From IMG/VR virus record IMGVR_UViG_3300043270_000042, positions 1 through 26,913 of that record: 26,913 nt of DNA, one strand, 5' to 3'. Each line of letters opens with the position of its first letter. Positions within the stretch are counted from its first letter, which is position 1. The position numbers were made by a program, and so were the translations under genes. The DNA is from a virus. Lineage: Duplodnaviria; Caudoviricetes. The notes under the pieces were generated by a model, which was not told where the DNA came from, searched no databases, and saw only the letters and a list, made by a program, of their open reading frames with translations. Below, piece after piece: positions 1 to 9,932 of this stretch.

Positions 1-160
1 ACAGCGGTGCGGCCACGGCCAGCGGCTACAGCGGTGCGGCCACGGCCAGCGGCGACAGAGGTGCGGCCACGGCCAGCGGCGACAGCGGTGCGGCCACGGC
101 CAGCGGCTACAGCGGTGCGGCCACGGCCAGCGGCTACAGCGGTGCGGCCACGGCCAGCGG
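1..160 (+). repeat. 27-bp coding tandem repeat, about 6 copies (ACAGCGGTGCGGCCACGGCCAGCGGC[T/G])
   Basis: Units start at 1, 28, 55, 82, 109 and 136. Confidence 0.97.
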
Positions 161-356
161 ACCAAACAGCACCGCCTGCGCGCCGGGCCGCTACGGCATG
201 GCGCGAGGCAAAGAAGGCTGCGCGCTGTTCCTGACGCACCGCGACGACGAGTGGCGCATCACGCACGCACGAGCCGTCATCGTCGGTCAAGACGGCATCA
301 AGCCGGACGTGTTCTACAGCCTGTCGCAGACAGGCGAAGTTGTGGAGGCTGCATGA
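1..356 (+). CDS. 5'-truncated phage repeat protein with (Y/D)SGAATASG nonapeptide repeats (DUF7666-like); not in the ORF track
   Basis: Frame starting at base 3 reads SGAATASG-YSGAATASG-DRGAATASG...PNSTACAPGRYGMARGKEGCALFL...GQDGIKPDVFYSLSQTGEVVEAA, stop TGA 354-356 overlapping the next ATG at 353. The GIKPDVFYSL tail is typical of this phage family. Confidence 0.8.
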   Translation, partial: SGAATASGYSGAATASGDRGAATASGDSGAATASGYSGAATASGYSGAATASGPNSTACAPGRYGMARGKEGCALFLTHRDDEWRITHARAVIVGQDGIKPDVFYSLSQTGEVVEAA

Positions 357-637
357 CGATCATCTACGCCGAGTCGCGCTTCGCCGAAGCGCGCTCGACC
401 GACGCGCCCGAGCAGCTCGACGCCGACGGCTGGCCCACCACGCGCGTCTTCGCACGCTCGATGCACGGCGCGGCCGGGGCCTTCGCTCAGGACGCCGAGT
501 ACGCGAGCCCGATCACCTACGTTGGCCCGAGCCGTGCGGAGCGCTTGACCGACCTGCTGTGGTGGGCGGTGGGCGTGGGCGTGCTCGGCGCGCTCGTGCT
601 CGCGGTGCTGCAACTGCCGGAGGTATGGCAGCAGTGA
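353..637 (+). CDS. Hypothetical phage protein with C-terminal transmembrane helix
   Basis: ATGA overlap with upstream stop; MTIIYAESRF...LLWWAVGVGVLGALVLAVLQL. Confidence 0.7.
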   Translation: MTIIYAESRFAEARSTDAPEQLDADGWPTTRVFARSMHGAAGAFAQDAEYASPITYVGPSRAERLTDLLWWAVGVGVLGALVLAVLQLPEVWQQ

Positions 638-954
638 GTCGCGACCCACAGCATCAACACAACTGGCCCGGCACGCGCCCCGACCTGCGCCTCGTGCCCA
701 AGGGCGAAGCCGAGCGCGAGGAAGAACTCGTGACGAACCGCTCGCTGTCCGACTGGCATGCGGCGCCGATCTACACGCGCGCCAGCGACCGTGCAGCGCC
801 GTCGGGGCCGCGCCTAGCTCCGCTGCGCTCGCGCCCCGTGCCGGTGGGCGGCGGGGTGATGCGCAAGCTGCGGCTGGTGCTGCGGGACACGTGGCGCTTC
901 ATCGCTGGGCCAAGTGCGTTGATGCACCAGACGCGTCGAAGGGTCCGGCGATGA
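634..954 (+). CDS. Hypothetical phage protein
   Basis: GTGA overlap at 634-637 and ATGA overlap at 951-954; MSRDPQHQHNWPGTRPDLRLV. Confidence 0.6.
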   Translation: MSRDPQHQHNWPGTRPDLRLVPKGEAEREEELVTNRSLSDWHAAPIYTRASDRAAPSGPRLAPLRSRPVPVGGGVMRKLRLVLRDTWRFIAGPSALMHQTRRRVRR

Positions 955-1157
955 GTCGCGCGCGCGCCGCCTTCGACGCGGCATTCAACGTGCCGCGCGA
1001 TCCGCGCAGCTCTGCGTACCGCGCCCCCCGCCCCACGCGCCATCGCCTGAGCCGCCACCGCCTCGCTCGCATGCTGAGCGAGGCAACCGTTGCGCTGATC
1101 CCGCTGCTTGCGCTGGCGTTGATCGGCTGGGCCAAGTCGCAGGGGTGGATGCCGTGA
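951..1157 (+). CDS. Hypothetical phage protein with C-terminal hydrophobic segment
   Basis: 4-bp overlaps at both ends; MSRARAAFDAAFNVPRDPRS...VALIPLLALALIGW. Confidence 0.6.
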   Translation: MSRARAAFDAAFNVPRDPRSSAYRAPRPTRHRLSRHRLARMLSEATVALIPLLALALIGWAKSQGWMP

Positions 1158-1378
1158 ACGAAGACCGCTTGAACGTGGAAACCGCGATGACGATGGCGCG
1201 CGTCAACTGGTTGTCCGAGCCCATGCAGCAGGACATGCTCAACGTGCTGCGCCCGATCGGTGTTTCGCATGACATAGTGCGCCGTTTGGTGGGTCACGCG
1301 TTTGCCGCCGGCTACCACCGCGGCGCCATCGACGCGCTGACGATGGTGGACGAAGCGGCGAAGCGGAGTCAGTTATGA
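1154..1378 (+). CDS. Hypothetical phage protein
   Basis: GTGA and ATGA overlaps at both ends; MNEDRLNVETAM. Confidence 0.7.
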   Translation: MNEDRLNVETAMTMARVNWLSEPMQQDMLNVLRPIGVSHDIVRRLVGHAFAAGYHRGAIDALTMVDEAAKRSQL

Positions 1379-2250
1379 ACGCCGTTCTCAAGCCCGCGGC
1401 CGACGAATACGTGATCGACGACATGCCGATCAACGAGTACCACGCGCATCCCGCGCTGTCGAACACTGGTCTGCGCGACTTCGCGCGCTCGCCCCTGCAC
1501 TACCACGCATTGCACCTGGACGAGCAGCGCCCACGCCGCGAGCCGACCAGCTCGCAACTCATGGGCAACCTCGCGCACTGTCTCATCCTCGAACCCGACG
1601 AGTTCCACAAGCGCTACGCGGTCGGGCCGGTCAGCGATCGGCGCCTCAAGGCGTGGAAGGAGTGGGAGGAAGCGCAGCCCAAGGGCCTGACACTCATCAA
1701 GCCCGACGAGTACGACATCGCGCAAGCGCAGGCGCTGTCGGTGCGCTCGATCACCGACGTGGCCGCGATCCTTGCCAAAGGCAAGGCCGAGCGCTCGGCC
1801 TTCTGGCGCGACCCGACCACCGGCGTGCTGTGCCGCTGCCGGCCAGACTGGACGCACGTCTGCGGCACGAGCGATCATCCGGCGGCCGTGCTGCTGGACG
1901 TGAAGACCTGCGGCGACGCATCGCCATCTGGCTTCGTGCGCCAAATCGCGCGCATGGAGTACCAGTACCAGGACGCGTGGTACACAGAAGGCTACGCGCG
2001 CGCGGCCGGCGTCGAGGTCATGGGCTTCGTGTTCGTGGCCGTCGAAGACGCGTGGCCTTTCGCCGCGTGCGCCGTGATGCTGACCGACGAAGAACGTGCC
2101 GCTGCGGCCGTCGAGAACCGCGCACTGCTGGCGCGCTTCGCCGAGTGTCAACGCACCGACACCTGGCCGGGCTACAGCGCCGGCATCGAGATCGTGCAAC
2201 TGCCGCGCTGGGCATCAGCGCAAAACCAACCTGAGAGCGACAAGCAATGA
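1375..2250 (+). CDS. RecE/exonuclease VIII-like PD-(D/E)XK nuclease (DUF3799 type)
   Basis: YHAHPALSNTGL, GNLAHCLILEP, CRCRPDW, LLDVKT, YQYQDAWY, FVFVAVE motifs; directly upstream of recT. Confidence 0.92.
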   Translation: MNAVLKPAADEYVIDDMPINEYHAHPALSNTGLRDFARSPLHYHALHLDEQRPRREPTSSQLMGNLAHCLILEPDEFHKRYAVGPVSDRRLKAWKEWEEAQPKGLTLIKPDEYDIAQAQALSVRSITDVAAILAKGKAERSAFWRDPTTGVLCRCRPDWTHVCGTSDHPAAVLLDVKTCGDASPSGFVRQIARMEYQYQDAWYTEGYARAAGVEVMGFVFVAVEDAWPFAACAVMLTDEERAAAAVENRALLARFAECQRTDTWPGYSAGIEIVQLPRWASAQNQPESDKQ

Positions 2251-3269
2251 CCACCACCAGCCTGGACAAGATCACCGCGGGCGACAAGCCGGCATCGGCC
2301 GTGGCCGCCTTCTCGAAGTTCATGGACAAGCTCAAGCCGCAACTCGCGCTTGCGCTGCCCAAGCACATGAACGCCGACCGCATGACGCGTCTGGCCTTGA
2401 CCGCGTTTTCGTCGAACCGCGACTTGCAAGAATGCAGCTCGCAGAGCATCGCCGGCTCGATCATGACGGCCGCGCAACTCGGCCTGGAACCCGGCATCAA
2501 CGGCCAGGGCTACCTGATCCCGTACAAGGGCACCTGCACCTTCGTACCAGGCTGGAAAGGCTTGGTGGACTTGGTCGCGCGCAGCGGTCGCGCCACCGTC
2601 TGGACCGGCGTGGTCTTCAAGGACGACGGCGACCAGTTCGAGTACGAGTTGGGTGACGCGCCGTTCTGCAAGCACAAGCCGTCCGACGAGCCGTACCCCG
2701 ACGGCGCGCAGTGGACGCATGTGTACGCCATCGGCCGCGTGAAGGACGCGGCGCTGCCCGTCATCGAGGTCTGGAGCCGCGCCAAGGTCAACAAGCACCT
2801 GAAGCAGTACAACAAGGTCGGTGGCCGTCACTACGCGCTGGCCAACGACAACAACTTCGAGATGTACGGCCGCAAGGTCGCGCTCCTGCAGGTGCTCAAG
2901 TACGTGCCGTCAAGCATCGAGCTGCAGAACGCGATCAGCGTGTCCAACGCCACCGACCAGGGCCTGAACGCCGTGATCGACGGCGACTTCGTCACCGTTC
3001 GGCCCGATCCAGAGTCTGTCGATCCCAGCACAGGCGAGATCACGTCCACCGACACAGCGACCGATGCCAAGGGCGCCGTCGCCAAGAAAGGAGCGAAGCC
3101 TGCATTCGACTTCGCAACAGCGATCAAGCGCGCGAAGGAGGCCAAGGATCGCGAAATCCTGCATCTGATGGCCGACGAGTGGCGCGACCTGCCCGATGGC
3201 GACGACAAGGATCAGTTGATTTCGGCCTTCCGCGCGCGTGACGCCGAGCTGGCGCAGGAGGGCAAGTGA
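2247..3269 (+). CDS. recT: RecT-family single-strand annealing recombinase
   Basis: LALALPKHMNADRMTRLALT, SIMTAAQLGLEPG, GQGYLIPY, PGWKGLVDLVARSG, EMYGRKVALLQVLKYVPSSIE. Confidence 0.95.
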   Translation: MTTTSLDKITAGDKPASAVAAFSKFMDKLKPQLALALPKHMNADRMTRLALTAFSSNRDLQECSSQSIAGSIMTAAQLGLEPGINGQGYLIPYKGTCTFVPGWKGLVDLVARSGRATVWTGVVFKDDGDQFEYELGDAPFCKHKPSDEPYPDGAQWTHVYAIGRVKDAALPVIEVWSRAKVNKHLKQYNKVGGRHYALANDNNFEMYGRKVALLQVLKYVPSSIELQNAISVSNATDQGLNAVIDGDFVTVRPDPESVDPSTGEITSTDTATDAKGAVAKKGAKPAFDFATAIKRAKEAKDREILHLMADEWRDLPDGDDKDQLISAFRARDAELAQEGK

Positions 3270-3478
3270 TGACTGCTGCGAACCGCATCTACATCGTCAC
3301 CACGCGCGTTGCAGCGCCCGCCGATGCGCCGCGCCTTGTGCGCGCCGTCAGCGCGGCTCAGGCGCTGCGCCACGTCGCGCAGGTCTACCAGGCCACTGTC
3401 GCCAGCCAGGACGACCTGATCGAGCACGTCGGCAAGGGCGTGAAGGTCGAGGACGCCACCAACACCACCACCGACTGA
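3266..3478 (+). CDS. Small hypothetical phage protein
   Basis: Overlaps the recT stop; RIYIV...RLVRAVSAAQALRHVA...VASQDDLI...GVKVEDA. Start could be 3269. Confidence 0.8.
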   Translation: MMTAANRIYIVTTRVAAPADAPRLVRAVSAAQALRHVAQVYQATVASQDDLIEHVGKGVKVEDATNTTTD

Positions 3479-3487
3479 AGGGCAACC

Positions 3488-4069
3488 ATGTTCGAGATCC
3501 GCTCCACCACCAGCCACACCCTCGTTCACAGCCAGTCGCGCATCGAGATCCACGGCGACAAGAAGGTGCCCGCGCTGGACGTTCGCCTGCGATTGAAGGC
3601 GTCGAACCACGCGCTGGACTTGGTGTGCCCCGGCCTGCGCGAAGCGCTCATGGTCAAGGGCCAGCCCGACGTGAAGCCCGTTGACGCGCAGGGCAAGCTC
3701 AATCTGAACGTGGACGAGCGCGGCAAGCTCGCGTTTCCGTCGATGAAGTACCCGCTCAAATTCGGCGCCGAGCACCAAGGGCACACCCTCGAAGTCGAGC
3801 ACGGCACCAAGGACAAGCTCAGGCTGACGCTGTGCAAGGTACACAACTTTCAGATCACGCCCGTGCCCGGCGGGAGCTGCGAGATCGAGTACACCGTCAG
3901 CAGCAACGCCGACATCGACGAGCACCTGATCGGCGCTTTCGGCGTCAAGGCGCAGACCAACGTGGCGCTCACGCTCAAGGCTGCGGAGGTTCAGCAGGAA
4001 GACCTCATCGACGGCAAGAAGCGCAAGGGCAGGACGCCGGAGCAGGCGTTTGCGCAGACGCAGCCGTGA
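3488..4069 (+). CDS. Hypothetical phage protein
   Basis: GAAGGG upstream of ATG; 193 aa with phage-like codon usage. Confidence 0.8.
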   Translation: MFEIRSTTSHTLVHSQSRIEIHGDKKVPALDVRLRLKASNHALDLVCPGLREALMVKGQPDVKPVDAQGKLNLNVDERGKLAFPSMKYPLKFGAEHQGHTLEVEHGTKDKLRLTLCKVHNFQITPVPGGSCEIEYTVSSNADIDEHLIGAFGVKAQTNVALTLKAAEVQQEDLIDGKKRKGRTPEQAFAQTQP

Positions 4070-4257
4070 AGCCCCTGACCACGCGCCTTCGCGCAGCGGT
4101 AGCCCTGCTGCGCAACGACCGGAGCGGCTTCGCCGACGCCAAGCGCCAGCACCCGGATGGCACGTTCACCACGTACGCGCAGCACGAGTTGGCGAAGTAC
4201 GACGCGGCCATAGCGGCGGTGCAAGAGGCGATCAAGAGCGTGAAGGACGGCGCGTGA
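4066..4257 (+). CDS. Hypothetical phage protein
   Basis: GTGA overlaps at both ends; MKPLTTRLRAAVALLRND. Confidence 0.65.
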   Translation: MKPLTTRLRAAVALLRNDRSGFADAKRQHPDGTFTTYAQHELAKYDAAIAAVQEAIKSVKDGA

Positions 4258-4466
4258 CCGACCGCGCCTACACTCTCTCCGAGCAGATCGCCGAGCTGCG
4301 GCGCGAGCTGGGCCTGCGCCTGCGGGTGTACAGCCGCTGGGTGTCGGACGGCCGCATGACGCAGGCGCAATGCGACGAGCACATCGGCCGCATGCAGGCT
4401 GCGTTGAATACGCTCGAAGCCCTGCGCGATGAAGACGAGGAGCGGCGCGCGCCGCGTTTACTGTGA
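4254..4466 (+). CDS. Hypothetical phage protein
   Basis: GTGA overlaps; MTDRAYTLSEQIAELRRELGLRLRVYSRWV...RMQAALNTL. Confidence 0.75.
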   Translation: MTDRAYTLSEQIAELRRELGLRLRVYSRWVSDGRMTQAQCDEHIGRMQAALNTLEALRDEDEERRAPRLL

Positions 4467-5110
4467 CCAAGACCCCCGACCTTGGCGCCCCGCCCATCGA
4501 CCTGAACGACGCGCGGCAGTGGCTGGCAGCACGCGCTGGGGCTGATGCCGCAGTGGTGGTGTACGACCCGCCCTATGCGGTAGGCACGCCAGTGAGAGGC
4601 AAGGACGACGGGGCGGCAGGCAGCGTGTTCGCGCCGTTTGGGTTCTTGCACGAGACGCTGCGGGCTTCACGCGATGCACTGCGCGATGGAGGCGTGGTGC
4701 TGGTGTTCGCCGACTGGCGGCGCATGGCTGACATGGGCTACCTGTGTTCCACGGTTGGCCTACGGCCTTCGACTTGCGTGGCGTGGGTGCGCAAACGACC
4801 TGGCACTGGCGGGCTGCTGCGCAGCGCGTGGGATCCGATTCTGATTGCTTCGCGCGGCGTGCCGGATGCTGTGGACCGGGCGGCGGTGCGCAACGTGATC
4901 GAAGCGGACTACCCGGCGAAGCGGACTCACCCTTACGGCAAGCCGCCGCAGATTTTCGAGACGCTGTTCCCCCGCGTGTGCGTCGAGGGCGATCTGGTGC
5001 TGGACCCGTTCGCCGGAAGTGGCGTGACGCGCGATGTGGCGGCGCACCTTGGCCTACGCTGGGCAGGGTGCGACATAGACCCTTCGCACGCGGAAACCGC
5101 GTCAGCCTGA
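4463..5110 (+). CDS. DNA N6-adenine/N4-cytosine methyltransferase, beta class
   Basis: Catalytic DPPY near the N-terminus, HPYGKP, SAM-binding VLDPFAGSG, then GCDID. Confidence 0.92.
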   Translation: MTKTPDLGAPPIDLNDARQWLAARAGADAAVVVYDPPYAVGTPVRGKDDGAAGSVFAPFGFLHETLRASRDALRDGGVVLVFADWRRMADMGYLCSTVGLRPSTCVAWVRKRPGTGGLLRSAWDPILIASRGVPDAVDRAAVRNVIEADYPAKRTHPYGKPPQIFETLFPRVCVEGDLVLDPFAGSGVTRDVAAHLGLRWAGCDIDPSHAETASA

Positions 5111-5169
5111 TGGCCGCGATGGTGATAGCGATGATGGTCGGCGAACAAAGGCAAGAAATGGTGCACGCG

Positions 5170-5493
5170 ATGACGCCCCTAAGTTTTGATCCAACCACGG
5201 CGCGCGAAGTTACTGGAGACGCGGAAGCAAGGGCGATAGAAGCCAAGGCCCGCGCCGACGCTGACGAACAGACGTTTTGTCCTCCGGCCACAAACGGCGG
5301 TGAGACGTATTGGGGCCAAGTGCAGGCGGCGATGCGGCTTATCGTTTACCGAGAGCAATACACGAAGCGCATGTCCAGGAACGAGCGCAAGAAGACGCCG
5401 AACGTGGAGTTGAGCCGCAAGGACGACTACGAGTTGTACCGCGCGCTGGAAGAGAGGCTGAGCGACGTGGACGAGCGGAATCCGCAACGATGA
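5170..5493 (+). CDS. Hypothetical protein, probably chimeric (reads through half-site A)
   Basis: MTPLSFDPTTAREV...KKTPNVELSR then KDDYELYRAL; alternative start at 5110; ATGA overlap with next gene. Confidence 0.6.
   Translation: MTPLSFDPTTAREVTGDAEARAIEAKARADADEQTFCPPATNGGETYWGQVQAAMRLIVYREQYTKRMSRNERKKTPNVELSRKDDYELYRALEERLSDVDERNPQR
5397..5418 (-). other. attC-like half-site A (L'-R' arm only)
   Basis: Minus strand GCGGCTCAAC-TCCAC-GTTCGGC; 5401-5418 is an exact 18-bp copy of 7700-7717 in site D; no partner arm seen. Confidence 0.65.
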
Positions 5494-5822
5494 GCGCCCT
5501 TCTTCAGCGCCTGCGCGACAAGCGCGACCTGTGCGCCTCGGAGCACGCGAGCGACATTGCGAACCTGCTGCACGAGGCGGTGCTGCACATCACGGCACTG
5601 CAGCAGCGAGCCGACGACGGCGATCGATGCCGCGATGCCCTGCGCGACCTCGTGGATGCGTACCGCGCGATGCCGGACGGCGAACTCGGGCGCGGGCTCA
5701 GCAACGGGCTGTTCCTGCGTGCCGAGGCGCTCTTGCAGCCCTTGCCGGCTGTTGTGGGGTCCGATTCGCCGAACGGGCCGGTTAACCTGACCACAAGGGC
5801 AGCAAACGAACTTGGAAGCTGA
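5490..5822 (+). CDS. Hypothetical phage protein ending inside attC-like site B
   Basis: MSALLQRLRDKRDLC...DSPNGPVNLTTRAANELGS. Confidence 0.7.
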   Translation: MSALLQRLRDKRDLCASEHASDIANLLHEAVLHITALQQRADDGDRCRDALRDLVDAYRAMPDGELGRGLSNGLFLRAEALLQPLPAVVGSDSPNGPVNLTTRAANELGS

Positions 5823-5863
5823 GGAAATGCAGCCTGCCCTTGTGGGTCAACCGGGTGTTGGGC
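5768..5863 (-). other. attC-like site B (96 bp, L'' box damaged)
   Basis: Minus strand GCCCAAC-ACCCG-GTTGACCCACAAGGGCAG...CTGCCCTTGTGGTCA-GGTTAAC-CGGCCC-GTTCGGC; 10-bp perfect inner stem ACAAGGGCAG/CTGCCCTTGT. Confidence 0.75.
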
Positions 5864-6411
5864 TTCACCGCGAGGCGTTGCCCCGCGTGTTGGACCCGTG
5901 CTGTGGCAGCCGGATGATGTGGTTCGACCCGCAGCACCCGGACGCACTTTTCGGCGACCGGCGCGCGGAGACGCTGACCGTGACCGACAACAGCCGAGGC
6001 AACGCCAGCGGCGTGCGCACGATCCGCATTGAGCCCGACACGCTGCTGGACTTCCGCGCGCTGCCGTACCCGGACGGATCGTTCAAGCTGGTGGCGTTCG
6101 ATCCGCCGCACCTTGTGCATGCCGGCCCGCGCTCGTGGCTGGCGGCGAAGTACGGGCGCCTGAGCGAGAACTGGCGCGACGATTTGCGGCAGGGCTTTGC
6201 GGAGTGTTTCCGCGTACTGGCCAGCGACGGCGTGCTGGTGTTCAAGTGGAACGAGACACAGGTGAAGGTGCGCGAGGTGCTGGCACTGACGCCGCATCAG
6301 CCACTGTTCGGGCACAAGAGCGGAAAGAAGGCCGGCACGCACTGGCTGGTGTTCATGAAGCCGACCGTCGGCGGTAACCGGCTTGCGCCCACCAGAAGCA
6401 ACGATGAATGA
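5827..6411 (+). CDS. Phage class I SAM-dependent methyltransferase with DPPH motif (probable DNA amino-methyltransferase)
   Basis: VLDPCCGSRMMWFD, DFRALPYPDGSFKLVAFDPPHL, GFAECFRVL, GVLVFKWNE, THWLVFMK. Start inside site B (ATG 5827 or TTG 5812), stop inside site C. Confidence 0.88.
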   Translation: MQPALVGQPGVGLHREALPRVLDPCCGSRMMWFDPQHPDALFGDRRAETLTVTDNSRGNASGVRTIRIEPDTLLDFRALPYPDGSFKLVAFDPPHLVHAGPRSWLAAKYGRLSENWRDDLRQGFAECFRVLASDGVLVFKWNETQVKVREVLALTPHQPLFGHKSGKKAGTHWLVFMKPTVGGNRLAPTRSNDE

Positions 6412-6452
6412 CGACCTTGCCGGCGCAAGTCCGGTTGACCAACCAGTTCGGC
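6360..6452 (-). other. attC-like site C (93 bp, R' core GTT changed to GGT)
   Basis: Minus strand GCCGAAC-TGGTT-GGT[C]AACCGG[A]CTTGCGCC...GGCGCAAGCCGGTTACC-GCCGAC-GGTCGGC; 5-nt and 6-nt spacers and both canonical unpaired bases. Confidence 0.85.
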
Positions 6453-6714
6453 CTCAACGCTCTGAGGCGGGTCTGGCAACAGCGACACCGAGCCATGCCC
6501 GAACGGCTGCGGCCCGCTGTGGCCTGTGACCTGGGAGCAGGAAGCACGCGAGGGCTACAAGCTGGCCGAAGACCTGTTTGAGCGCGCAAAGCGCGCCGAG
6601 GATGCGCTGCGCGATCACACCGATGCACGCCTACTACAACGAGATCGATCCCTACGCAGCGCAGTGGCTGCGGAACCTGATTGCGCGCGGCCTGATCGCG
6701 CCTGGCGACGTTGA
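6404..6714 (+). pseudogene. Frameshifted or deleted phage gene remnant
   Basis: ATG 6404 inside site C gives MNDDLAGASPVDQPVRP and stops early. A more protein-like segment (SGNSDTEPCPNGCGPLWPVTWEQEAREGYKLAEDLFERAKRAEDAL) sits in another frame after TGA 6463-6465 with no good start. Confidence 0.55.
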
Positions 6715-7720
6715 CGAACGCAGCATTTTGGAAGTGAGCCGCGATGACTTGCGAGACTACACACAGTGCCACTTCTTCGCCGGCCTCGGCGGTTGGAGCT
6801 ACGCCCTGCGGCTCGCAGGCTGGCCCGATGACCGACCTGTTTGGACAGGCTCTTGCCCCTGCCAGCCGTTCAGCACCGCGGGCAAGCAGCGTGGCAGCGA
6901 AGATGAGCGCCACCTATGGCCTGCGTTCTTCGACCTCATCCGCGAGCGCCGCCCTGCAAGCGTGTTTGGCGAGCAGGTTGCCGGAGCTGCTGGACTCGCG
7001 TGGCTCGATCATGTTTGCGCTGACCTGGAAGGCGCAGGTTACGCCGCTGCGGCGGCGAATCTGTGCGCTGCTGGCGCAGGGGCACCGCACATCAGGCAGC
7101 GGCTCTACTGGGTGGCCCACGCCGAACACGCCGAGCGGCGGACGTTCGATGTCGATCAACAAAATGGATGCGACGGGCCGAACGGTAGACGGCAAGAAGC
7201 ACACGGCGTCGCTCGAACATGCGGTGAAGTTCGCGGGCTGGCCGACGCCGATGGCTGGAACGCCAGCGCAGAACGGCAACAACGCGGCGGGGAACAACGA
7301 CTGCAGCCGCAAGACGGTGGAGCTTGCCTCCTGGGCGACGCCGGCGACGAGGGACTGGAAATCGAACGAAGGTTCCCCGGAGTTTCACGCGGCGCGAGCG
7401 GATCAGGCGAGGGGCAAGCCGCTGAGCGAACAAGCGCATCAACTCGTGGGGTGGGCAGCGCCAGTGATTCGGGACCACAGAAACAGCATGGGAGACGGCA
7501 CGAACCAGCGCGACCTTCCGAGACAGACCGCCTTGCTGCTTGGGCCGACCTCGAATGGCTCGCGTGCAGCGACGGAAAAGCCCGGCCAACTCAACCCGGC
7601 CTTTTCCCGCTGGCTCATGGGATACCCAACAGAATGGGACGACTGCGCGCCTACGGCAACGCGATCGTCCCGCAAGTCGCGGCCGTCTTCGTGATGGCTA
7701 ACGTGGAGTTGAGCCGCTGA
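6623..7720 (+). CDS. DNA (cytosine-5) methyltransferase, alpha polypeptide (motifs I-VIII and X)
   Basis: HFFAGLGGW (I), GSCPCQPFS (IV), FGEQV (VI), PHIRQRLYW (VIII), [14 protein letters not shown] (X); stop inside site D. Confidence 0.92.
6744..7694 (+). CDS. Nested alternative-frame beta polypeptide of the C5 methyltransferase (motif IX, WPTP repeats); true start probably downstream of 6744
   Basis: 316-codon open frame within alpha; four W-(P/A)-(T/A)-P repeats; [18 protein letters not shown] resembles motif IX, which is missing from the alpha frame. Confidence 0.75.
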
Positions 7721-7795
7721 CGGCGGCGCTACAGGAGTATGAAGATGGAACAAACTTCCCCGCCGACCGCAGTCGGCTCGAACGCAGGGTTAGGC
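7696..7795 (-). other. attC-like site D (100 bp, apparently intact)
   Basis: Minus strand GCCTAAC-CCTGC-GTT[C]GAGCCG[A]CTGCGGTCGGCG...CGCCGCCGTCAGCGGCTCAAC-TCCAC-GTTAGCC; perfect RYYYAAC, GTT core and both unpaired bases. Confidence 0.9.
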
Positions 7796-8086
7796 GTAGT
7801 TGGCGCGGTGCAGGCGGCAAAGTTTCAGCGCGTGCCACTGGCCGACTTGACGAACCCGCAGAAGCGCGGACCGCTGATGACCTACCAAGACCACTGGTGG
7901 GCTGTGGACGACGAGGGCAACGCGTTCTTCTACGAGGGCAAGACGTATTCGCCGCAGTGCAACACGAACCGACTGATCGTGGAGCGACACCTTGCGATGG
8001 GGCTGGCAACACGCGCTGGGGCTGATGCCGCAGGCAGTCCGCTAGAACAAAGTGTTCGGCTTCACCTGACCAGAGCGAAAGAATGA
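7745..8086 (+). CDS. Hypothetical protein with chimeric C-terminus
   Basis: AGGAG 7733-7737 then ATG 7745, both inside site D; core YQDHWWAVDDEGNAFFY...SPQCNTN; tail runs through a 33-bp repeat and half-site E. Confidence 0.65.
   Translation: MEQTSPPTAVGSNAGLGVVGAVQAAKFQRVPLADLTNPQKRGPLMTYQDHWWAVDDEGNAFFYEGKTYSPQCNTNRLIVERHLAMGLATRAGADAAGSPLEQSVRLHLTRAKE
8001..8033 (+). repeat. 33-bp direct repeat of 4521-4553 (1 mismatch)
   Basis: GGCTGGCA[A/G]CACGCGCTGGGGCTGATGCCGCAG at both positions. Confidence 0.95.
8026..8060 (-). other. attC-like half-site E (R''-L'' arm only)
   Basis: Minus strand GCCGAAC-ACTTT-GTT[C]TAGCGG[A]CTGCCTGCGGCA, same geometry as sites C and D; partner arm replaced by the 33-bp repeat. 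Confidence 0.7.
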
Positions 8087-8745
8087 TTGCGCTGAGCATC
8101 CGCCAGCCTTGGGCGAGTTTGATCCTGAACGCCGGCAAGGACATTGAGAACCGCGACTGGCCGACCAAGTACCGTGGGCGCATCCTGATTCACGCGGCCA
8201 AGGGTTGTACGCGCATGGAGTTCGATGACGCCATCCAGTTTGCAGAGGGCTGCATTCAACGGCCGATCACTGCCGACTTGGACACCATTCCGCGCGGCGG
8301 CATCGTGGGCAGCGTCGAGATCGTGGACTGTGTAGCCGACAGCCAATCGCCTTGGTTTGTGGGCCGCTACGGCTTCGTGCTGCGCGACCCAAAGCCGCTG
8401 CCGTTCACGCCGTGCAAAGGGCGGCTCGGGTTCTTTGACGTGCCTGCCGAGGCGCTTGCTACGGCGGTCGCCCACGCAGATCAGCTCGGCCTGCCTGTTG
8501 GGCGGCTCACGCGCGGACAGCGGCGCTACCTCGCAAAGTCCGAGTGCGTGTTTTGCGAGTACTCGCTGGCCAAGTCACGTTGCGGGTCGATCTACGGTCC
8601 AAGGTGCAGCGAGGAGCTGATGGCGCAACGCCGCGCCGAGTGCCTGAAAGCCTACAAGCCGCGCTCGCCTATCCCTGACAAGAGCCCGGCATGTACCGCG
8701 TCGGCATCGGATTCACCGCCGCCGGCCCGCAACGCCACGCCGTAA
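8083..8745 (+). CDS. ASCH domain protein with Cys-rich C-terminal extension
   Basis: [54 protein letters not shown]; extension CVFC...C...C. Confidence 0.9.
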
Positions 8746-9157
8746 TCACACCACCGCCGGCCGTCGTGCCCACCAGCGGCGCCGGCGGCGCGGCGTCGTC
8801 GAAGGGCACCAGGCTGATGGCGTTGGCCGTGGCAGTCACCGCGCCGCCCAGCGTGGCTGGGTTGCCAACGATCGTGATCACGCCGTTGGCATCGACGCTG
8901 CCCGACGCCACGTAGCGCGTCGCCGCAAAGCTGCACACGCCCGGCAGTTGCGCGCTGATGTCCGGTGCGCTGGCGGACTGCACCGTCTCCGAGATGGTGG
9001 TGCGGCAGCTCGACGCGGCAAGCATCAGCTCGCTCACCTTGCTGCGTACGGTGTAGTCCTGATACGCCGGCAGTGCAATGGCGGCCAGGATGCCGATGAT
9101 GGCCACGACGATCATCAGCTCGATGAGCGTGAAGCCGGCCTGCTTGATGCGGTTCAT
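8669..9157 (-). CDS. pilA: Type IVa major pilin (prepilin), 162 aa
   Basis: MNRIKQAG|[35 protein letters not shown]; C-terminal D-region WRCG...YMPGSC; GGAG upstream; ATGA overlap with upstream gene. Confidence 0.95.
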
Positions 9158-9363
9158 GGTGCGTTGCTCCGGGCATGGTGTGCCGCCTGAAGTAGCTCTG
9201 CGCAGGCCGCGGCGGTGATTCGGTCTGCAGGTTGTTGAATGCAATGGACGCGCGCTGCGGCCTGCATCCGCGCCAAGTGCGGGCGCGGCGCGTGCACGAG
9301 CGCGGCGAGCAGTGTGAGCACGGCGCACGCGACGATGATCTGAAGGTGGTGCAGGCGCATCAC
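9154..9363 (-). CDS. Small membrane-anchored or secreted protein between endolysin and pilin
   Basis: [25 protein letters not shown]...C..C; overlaps the endolysin stop and the pilin start. Confidence 0.6.
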
Positions 9364-9932
9364 AAGGCCTCTCCTGCCGCGTCCGCCACCGCCCGCACCG
9401 CCTGAGCGTACAGAGCCGGCCAAGTCAGCGGGTGCGGCTTGCCGGGGCGCCACGTCTCAAGGTAGTAGTGCCAGGCGCGGTAGGTCTCGCCCACGGCCGG
9501 CAGCGCCTTGGGGTGCGTCCAGAGCAGCAGCCGTGCCACACCGGCGGCGAGCACGTCGTCGTGCTCGATCTGCTGCCAAATCGGGCCGGGATCGAACGCC
9601 ACGTCCCGGTCGCGGCACAGCAGCCGCAGCAACTCGCTTGACGCGCGATGCAGATACACGCCCCACACGCCGCCACGGCTGCTCTTCGTGCCGCGCTCGA
9701 ATTGCCAATAGCCGCGCGCCGGCCCGTCGCCGAGCTGGCGCCGGTAGAGGAAGCGGCTTTCTTGCAGGCCGATCGCCAGCAGCATCACCCGAGCGGCCGG
9801 CGTGTCCATATGCGCGGGTAGCCGGCCCAGCGCCGGGCCGACCATGCGATTCAGCACATCGGCCAGCGTTGGGGGCAAATCGCCTCCAGGCGCCCCGCTC
9901 AGGTTAACGTTGTGGGGTGGGGTAGGGTTCAT
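9360..9932 (-). CDS. Putative endolysin, lysozyme-like fold
   Basis: [55 protein letters not shown]; adjacent to spanins. Confidence 0.8.

Follow-up and report, generated by a model that had tools for sequence, protein, structure and literature searches.

The virus record IMGVR_UViG_3300043270_000042 (Duplodnaviria; Caudoviricetes) carries, among the accessory genes of its early operon, a series of elements resembling the attC sites of integrons, and the genes that flank them all lie on the strand opposite to that on which these sites read. This arrangement raises the question of what these elements are, what assembled them and whether the array is still at work. The stretch of DNA that was analysed (referred to below as the window) is the entire linear record of 26,913 bases. 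A preliminary description of this DNA had noted five such elements (A to E), with every flanking gene on the plus strand; all five were found at the positions given, the inversion of the open reading frames (ORFs) relative to the sites is confirmed, and a likely sixth element, F, is added here. The results presented below indicate that the array consists of attC sites with opposite-strand genes that was probably built by an IntI integrase encoded by an ancestor of this phage. It is judged to be now decaying because neither an integrase nor an attI site was found in the phage and only one of the six sites is intact.

An attC site was recognised by an R'' box of the form RYYYAAC, a 5-nt spacer, an L'' box, a stem, an L' box, a 5–6-nt spacer and an R' box of the form GTTRRRY, within a length of about 55–140 nt. 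Site D (7696..7795, minus strand) shows all of these features and is the sole intact attC, with a predicted IntI cut between 7701 and 7702. Site C (6360..6452, minus strand) shows all of them except that the core of its R' box is GGT instead of GTT. Full attC anatomy had earlier been ascribed to both sites, and this stands for D, but the core substitution in C had been overlooked. The extrahelical C and the extrahelical A that mark the bottom strand are present in both D and C. When folded, D forms canonical pairs on both strands with pair probabilities of 0.83–1.0, whereas in the bottom-strand fold of C the R-box pairs are nearly absent (pair probability 0.00–0.07).

A covariance model with textbook pairing (R1) was constructed from bacterial sites only, in order to avoid circularity. 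It is based upon 59 attC-like sites located beside bacterial intI genes, which are those that were aligned out of 83 found by our structural scanner, the long and doubtful ones being excluded. On the minus strand of the window, R1 matched D with 52.8 bits (E-value 4.6e-10) and C with 29.4 bits (8.8e-5), these E-values being rough, and its third-best match in the window scored 12.5 bits. Three attC sites of the phage TJE1, which served as a positive control, scored 31–44 bits. The attC identity of D and C that had been proposed is thus supported by this model, and the structural scanner itself found no site in 402,584 shuffled bases compared with 48 in 846,564 real bases. That these are simple RNA hairpins, acting as terminators or as translation-control stems, with only a chance likeness to attC sites is extremely improbable. 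The hairpins do lie on the mRNA strand at gene borders and enclose start codons, but the E-value of D, the strict strand polarity and the association with IntI described below all argue against it; further, no terminator-like site was found at any of A–F and a search of Rfam gave no relevant match. A secondary role of the hairpins in translation control is possible.

The remaining sites are damaged to different extents. Site B (5768..5863, minus strand) is a full-length attC with a 6-nt in-frame deletion in its L'' arm; a 627-nt relative contig over 5768–6362, recovered in two runs of one study, has 6 extra letters after 5848. As this contig takes in B together with the methyltransferase, it might conceivably represent a circle. 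B has lost its extrahelical bases, and its match with R1 (8.3 bits, on the wrong strand) is at the noise level. Sites A, E and F are half-sites, for which the best matches in 30 shuffled windows provided a reference line at their 95th percentile (about 15). Site A (5397..5418, minus strand) is the left half of an attC, comprising an R' box, a 5-nt spacer and an L' box. Over 18 nt it matches the left end of D exactly, and its profile score is 22.1 against a 95th percentile of 15.0; its right half is absent or too eroded to recognise. A candidate for this eroded arm near 5445–5464 was seen by eye, but no score backs it and A was kept as a half-site. No full-length relative of A was found by a 15-mer scan, which gave 87 mostly chance loci, two of them passing a loose filter and neither of these being an attC. 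Site E (8030..8060, minus strand) consists of the hairpin tip and the right half (L'', spacer and R'') of a short attC whose left arm is gone, and its profile score is 21.3 against a 95th percentile of 15.3. Site F (8477..8503, minus strand), which was absent from the earlier list, is likely the right half of an eroded attC; its profile score alone (12.0) is under the shuffle line.

At the place where the left arm of E is deleted, a 33-nt stretch (8001–8033, at the end of the gene that starts at 7739) is identical in 32 of 33 positions to 4521–4553 in an N6-methyltransferase gene, and this shared stretch may be the record of a template switch. An assembly error at the E junction was considered as an explanation, and the contigs of a second assembly lend it no support. 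These contigs, from the probable source run, match the window over 4000–9110 with zero differences, although they are not independent reads, and no alternative joints at the sites were seen in them, contigs being prone to lose rare variants. Separately, a left-half-like motif at 9892–9915 (minus strand), at the start of an endolysin-like late gene, scored 17.6 compared with a shuffle maximum of 15.5, and no matching right half was found for it.

As C and D lie 1.24 kb apart, both exceed 20 bits with R1 and there is no integron integrase nearby, the array is by definition a cluster of attC sites lacking an integron integrase (CALIN), the threshold given in the main text of Qi et al. (2023; PMC9892861) being at least two attC sites within 3 kb. 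It is not a complete integron, and its cassettes are non-canonical. In a canonical cassette the ORF is on the attC top strand and ends before R'', whereas every gene of the array lies on the bottom strand.

The origin of such an array was examined in related phages. The relatives of the methyltransferase encoded between B and C (the best 80 of 251 viral loci) and three more loci from a motif scan gave 83 loci, of which 13 bear sites (10 of the 80 methyltransferase loci and the three from the motif scan). These hold 48 sites, all of them opposite in strand to the query gene or motif, and none was found in 40 shuffled loci. Tyrosine recombinases are present in two of the 13 site-bearing records. 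The record G010 encodes an IntI, identified by TIGR02249 with 412.7 bits (cut-off 265), which is followed by an excisionase-like gene and then by a phage integrase; the residues R-K-H-R-H-Y and the IntI-specific insertion are invariant across 14 relatives of this IntI. With the G010 protein as query, 48 and then 53 further viral loci were obtained. In the second of these viral IntI sets, 78 of 81 sites are upstream of intI and on the opposite strand, which is the regular polarity of integrons; with 80 of the 81 sites on the strand opposite intI, these arrays are not of the inverted-integrase type. A conserved motif that begins RYYYAAC precedes intI in 35 of 52 loci, and unrelated upstream genes are joined to it at AA|C. 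This motif is presumably the attI site of these arrays. The part that was missing from the earlier reading is, therefore, that related phages encode their own IntI together with an attI-like site at the end of the array.

In locus L278 (576–850) an intact attI-like site precedes an intI that is truncated after about 90 codons, and in L471 the IntI match is confined to residues 11–91; these truncated genes are possible intermediates of IntI loss. Among GenBank phages no close relative was found, the similarity being to the methyltransferase alone, and nine records contain an IntI-like protein, each with <60% identity to the phage IntI.

In the arrays of the two viral IntI sets (near-copy arrays included), a codon model placed the ORFs between sites on the strand of intI in 49 of 53 intervals of the first set and in 41 of 47 of the second. 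An independent check was provided by matches to PHROG families, which were obtained for 25 of 72 gene-strand ORFs and for none of 72 opposite-strand ORFs (72 of 90 intervals, from 18 arrays). Bacterial arrays, by ORF coverage, are canonical in 45 of 49 intervals. In a bacterial array of an Omnitrophota genome (L201, 3972–9092), intI shares its strand with the attC top strands, and this array is of the inverted-integrase type.

These orientations bear upon the suggestion that the array is a captured piece of a host chromosomal integron, i.e. an ordinary CALIN. Captures of this kind are described for Vibrio and Shewanella phages in the main text of PMC9892861, and the sites of the window do match a covariance model of bacterial origin. 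However, the captured arrays of TJE1 and M16-3 are canonical, both by annotation and with R1, and the cargo of the window is of phage type. Of the 80 related viral loci with its phrog_954 methyltransferase, 10 carry this gene as cassette cargo and 70 have it without sites. In a phylogenetic tree, 30 of 33 viral IntIs also formed one group apart from 22 genome IntIs, with a support of 90/91 that was not starred and with sequences that had been chosen by their likeness to one phage IntI. We consider capture from a host to be very unlikely. An exchange of genes with host integrons, which had also been suggested, is likewise not favoured by the phage-type cargo, and none of the phage sites is ≥80% identical to any of the 83 bacterial sites, although this sample is small.

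The cassettes of the window are shared with the related phages. Site D, to which the copies in L002 and L003 are 93% identical, occurs together with its gene in L002 and L278 as the first cassette at the attI-like motif, ahead of the truncated intI, and it occurs alone in L003 with different genes on both sides. The gene starting at 7739 is located in L279 between two other attC sites of a 14-site array. Site C has 92–95% identity to intact sites of L006, L113 and L231, and IntI is present in L113 and L231. The ASCH-domain gene of the window is 90% identical to its counterpart in L281 from exactly 8054, which is a G and the first base of the R'' box of E, to 8471; at this place L281 has a stop codon and an intact attC, and the window contains remnant F. 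The 214 non-redundant phage sites include 35 pairs with at least 85% identity, of which seven share the downstream gene, one the upstream gene and 27 neither, and a further nine pairs have a common downstream gene with different sites. The same gene was found behind different hairpins in 8 of 14 gene families. The association of one hairpin with different genes was considered as a trait specific to phages and this was rejected. It is also seen in seven of nine near-identical pairs of bacterial sites (seven doubtful matches of the 83 having been removed beforehand), and hence it represents a general mark of cassette making.

The positions at which such related sequences diverge are informative in this regard. 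At R', the interval containing the change-point includes the bottom-strand IntI cut in 36 of 47 pairs (which are non-independent), in agreement with the expectation that the gene content of relatives would change at AA|C. At R'', only 15 of 37 intervals (from pairs that are also non-independent) include the top-strand cut and the junctions are scattered over tens of bases, due to which top-strand cutting by IntI was rejected as the cause of all R'' junctions. According to Bouvier et al. (PMC2727003) and Nivina et al. (PMC5027507), the bottom strand recombines in R', and recombination of the top strand, which is some 1,000–10,000 times rarer, takes place in R''. Based upon these counts and the published roles of the two boxes, we read the R' junctions as probable IntI work and those at R'' as the likely product of a looser second process, perhaps annealing by RecT with some top-strand cuts. 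The exonuclease VIII and RecT-like annealing protein encoded at 1375..3269 (plus strand), in the same early operon as the array, are a candidate source of these looser exchanges.

It could be argued that these two proteins alone have shuffled the hairpins as linker repeats, the attC form being inherited and IntI not being the mover. Their presence in the operon of the array and the diffuse R''-side junctions are both consistent with this, as is the E junction, which looks driven by microhomology. We regard this explanation as improbable in view of what is seen at R', where one gene end recurs next to unrelated sites with the joints falling a few bases or less from AA|C, and of the many relatives whose arrays end in an attI-like site and an IntI that has kept its catalytic residues. 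The extra bases have also been retained, the C in 172 and the A in 197 of 214 sites, although the score of the scanner partly favours them.

The genes of the array, all on the plus strand, are closely interlocked with the sites. An ORF at 5110..5493 (start at 5110 or 5170; no family match) reads through site A, and the next one (5490..5822) has its stop inside the loop of B. The phrog_954 DNA methyltransferase (5827..6411) starts in B and ends in C. It is followed by an open frame with a CPNGC motif (6466..6714), which is out of frame with both ATGs of C and has its first in-frame start at 6526; this is likely a decoupled or broken gene, and contigs of relatives cover 6475–6616 of it. The C5-cytosine DNA methyltransferase (6623..7720; PF00145, phrog_363) has its stop inside D, and nested within its gene is a second frame of 316 codons (6744-7694, phrog_1008), so that both frames have PHROG families. 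A small gene (7739..8086, weak match to phrog_13902) starts in D and has had its 3' end replaced by the right half of E, and the ASCH-domain gene (8083..8745) is fused in frame to a second ORF via remnant F.

Sites B and D are alike in that the upstream gene terminates in the loop and the next gene begins there after a purine-rich motif. B contains GAGG and the methyltransferase ATG (5827), and in the loop of D the stop codon of the preceding gene is accompanied by CAGGAG and by the ATG at 7739 from which the following gene is read. Of the phage sites of ≥80 nt, 69 of 122 have an ATG whose frame runs on into the gene behind the site, compared with 5 of 32 bacterial sites, and 42 of 122 have such an in-frame ATG together with a Shine-Dalgarno-like motif, compared with none of 32.

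The array occupies the distal end of the early operon, at its meeting point with the late genes. The plus strand encodes exonuclease VIII, the RecT-like protein, three DNA methyltransferases and the ASCH gene, and the minus strand encodes pilin, lysis, tail and capsid proteins. A sibling record, G014, is 99.95% identical across 1–3800 of the window and contains, beyond this, a Cro-like gene, replication genes, RusA, terminases and portal; together the two records cover about 42 kb, and the remaining gap lies, by gene order, within the head genes. The left end of the window falls inside a 27-nt tandem repeat (1–187), which encodes a part of phrog_4433 that is rich in Gly, Ala and Thr. A type IV pilin gene (8669–9160, minus strand; PF00114, with an N-methyl motif) occupies the place where relatives have intI, xis and int, and a role of this gene in superinfection exclusion is a guess.

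The machinery that would be needed for an active integron was not found in this phage. No match to PF00589 or TIGR02249 (tyrosine recombinases, IntI), PF00239 (serine resolvases) or PF00717 (cI-type peptidases) was detected in the window, and the sibling gave no match to PF00589, PF00239 or PF00717. The attI-like motif has no match in the window, so that of the components of a complete integron intI is absent from the window and the sibling and attI from the window. A crude scan revealed no sigma-70-like site in 4000–9500. In the sibling, the region next to the Cro-like gene (L528, 5479–6068) has 90 bases to the first leftward ORF, which leaves no space for an adjoining cI repressor. The phage looks like a lytic derivative from which repressor, int and intI would have disappeared. 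The integrase that had been envisaged outside the window was not found in the approximately 42 kb of window and sibling. The further proposal of a working cassette-shuffling platform agrees poorly with the lack of attI and with one intact site out of six.

An active platform of this kind would need an IntI of the host, or of a co-infecting phage, to work on the array in trans. Site D is undamaged, and its score exceeds those of the TJE1 sites, of which two were recombined by IntI1 according to the main text of PMC9892861; IntI is present in Burkholderiales genomes, and the near-complete records G009 and G013 carry sites without a tyrosine recombinase. An IntI supplied in trans may act on D. 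Nevertheless, excision requires two competent sites and the neighbours of D are C, which has a mutated core, and E, which is a half-site; as attI is also absent from the window, insertion of new cassettes at D is the most that might be expected. We therefore consider an active array unlikely, and a decaying array built by the IntI of an ancestral phage remains the explanation that we favour.

A number of points weigh against this conclusion. With regard to orientation, when ORF coverage is used by itself the gene strand is preferred in no more than 54 of the 90 phage intervals, the codon model finds the canonical layout in only 17 of 49 bacterial intervals, and 10 of 100 viral intervals were called canonical. 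The codon model had been trained on the genes of the window and was dropped as a bacterial control since it fails on low-GC bacterial cassettes; as ORF coverage is weak and the codon model miscalls bacterial arrays, the orientation of the phage genes is based upon the codon model together with the PHROG matches. Two phage-array intervals that score as canonical (L122, 6571–7179, and L242, 6609–8247) are possible captured bacterial cassettes. With regard to the junctions, the R' cut was missed in 11 of 47, some of these through indels in an ungapped comparison. The state of G009 and G013 noted above also counts here, and arrays without IntI may be serviced in trans rather than being dead. For the present phage, an integrase could be encoded in the unseen part of the genome, which by gene order is inside the head genes; the CheckV completeness of the window (38%) implies more absent DNA than gene order does, and the sibling is confirmed as the same phage over 3,800 bases only. 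Lastly, the array could have been acquired as a block, or cassette by cassette, by a lineage that never had intI.

According to the mechanism that we propose, a cassette on the gene strand would consist of a hairpin and then its gene (C-L'-loop-L''-R''-gene-RYYYAA). The gene strand is the bottom strand; as happens in integrons generally, it would be folded and then cut by IntI at the AA|C of R', and the excised unit would then be inserted at attI, between the array and intI and ahead of xis and int. The early operon would be transcribed through the array toward intI without a cassette promoter being required, and it is because of this read-through that genes would be selected to face intI. Long hairpins would bring a ribosome binding site and start codon for the gene behind them and a stop codon for the gene in front, and the second, looser process would re-pair genes and hairpins near R''. 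Once the attI-intI-xis-int block had disappeared, the sites would persist chiefly for their role as coding and translation-start sequence, in keeping with the damage at B, E and F, which preserves the frame.

We further put forward, tentatively and at somewhat less than an even chance, that Burkholderiales-like temperate phages run an integron of their own with a separate, mirror-image cassette pool. The hairpins in this pool would be portable start modules that are repeatedly attached to phage genes at R'', by top-strand IntI cuts or by RecT annealing, so that these arrays would show cassettes being made, and the window would be the end stage after loss of repressor, integrase and IntI. The origin of cassettes is a long-open question of integron biology which the phage arrays, if this proposal is true, would illuminate directly. 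A phage lineage that uses the same chemistry with the cargo on the recombining strand and the start codon in the hairpin represents a different design, and it would account for some of the mosaicism seen among the small early genes and methyltransferases of these phages. Since individual genes occur behind different hairpins and, in the methyltransferase loci, also free of hairpins, this pool should provide a tractable system for studying how cassettes are made. The window, being a decayed member, is of value mainly as a record of shared cassettes and of array erosion.

The nearest of the systems known earlier include the CALINs of virulent phages (TJE1, PH101 and P12002L) reported by Qi et al. 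(2023; PMC9892861), whose main text describes 17 phage CALINs and the recombination of five of six tested sites by IntI1. These resemble the window array in having clustered attC sites without intI and methyltransferase cargo, although no site was found by R1 in P12002L. However, the sites and annotated genes of TJE1 are on the same strand, whereas the genes of the window array are all on the bottom strand and start inside hairpins, and this array traces to phages with their own IntI and attI-like site. Neither inverted ORFs nor a phage IntI lineage are described in the main text of PMC9892861, and no published description of this backward layout was found by searches of full-text literature, which covered few subscription papers or bioRxiv supplements. 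In the backward insertion of cassettes by top-strand recombination (Nivina et al., 2016; PMC5027507, relevant portions) the gene likewise faces the integrase end and R'' is cut, but there gene and attC flip together, whereas here the polarity of attC is normal and the gene alone is reversed.

Mosaic phages also contain linker or boundary repeats, an example being the stem-loop cassettes among the early genes of T4-type phages; these are located at the borders of swappable early genes, carry expression signals and probably recombine by homology. The present elements are similarly short repeats that border swappable early genes, but they are built like attC sites, resemble one another little in sequence and are linked to a site-specific recombinase. 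In inverted-integrase integrons, intI is co-directional with the cassette genes, as in the phage arrays; there, however, it is intI that is flipped relative to attC, whereas in the phage relatives the polarity of intI and attC is regular and it is the genes that are flipped. With canonical integrons (those of class 1 and the sedentary chromosomal ones), the phage arrays share the attC anatomy, an IntI above the family cut-off in the relatives, intI and attC top strands that face apart and junctions at the R' cut. They differ from them in that the ORFs face intI, that the hairpin precedes the gene and supplies its start, and that the cassettes would be expressed from the early operon of the phage, at the opposite end of the array, rather than from Pc, the window itself representing a member of this group that lacks intI and attI.

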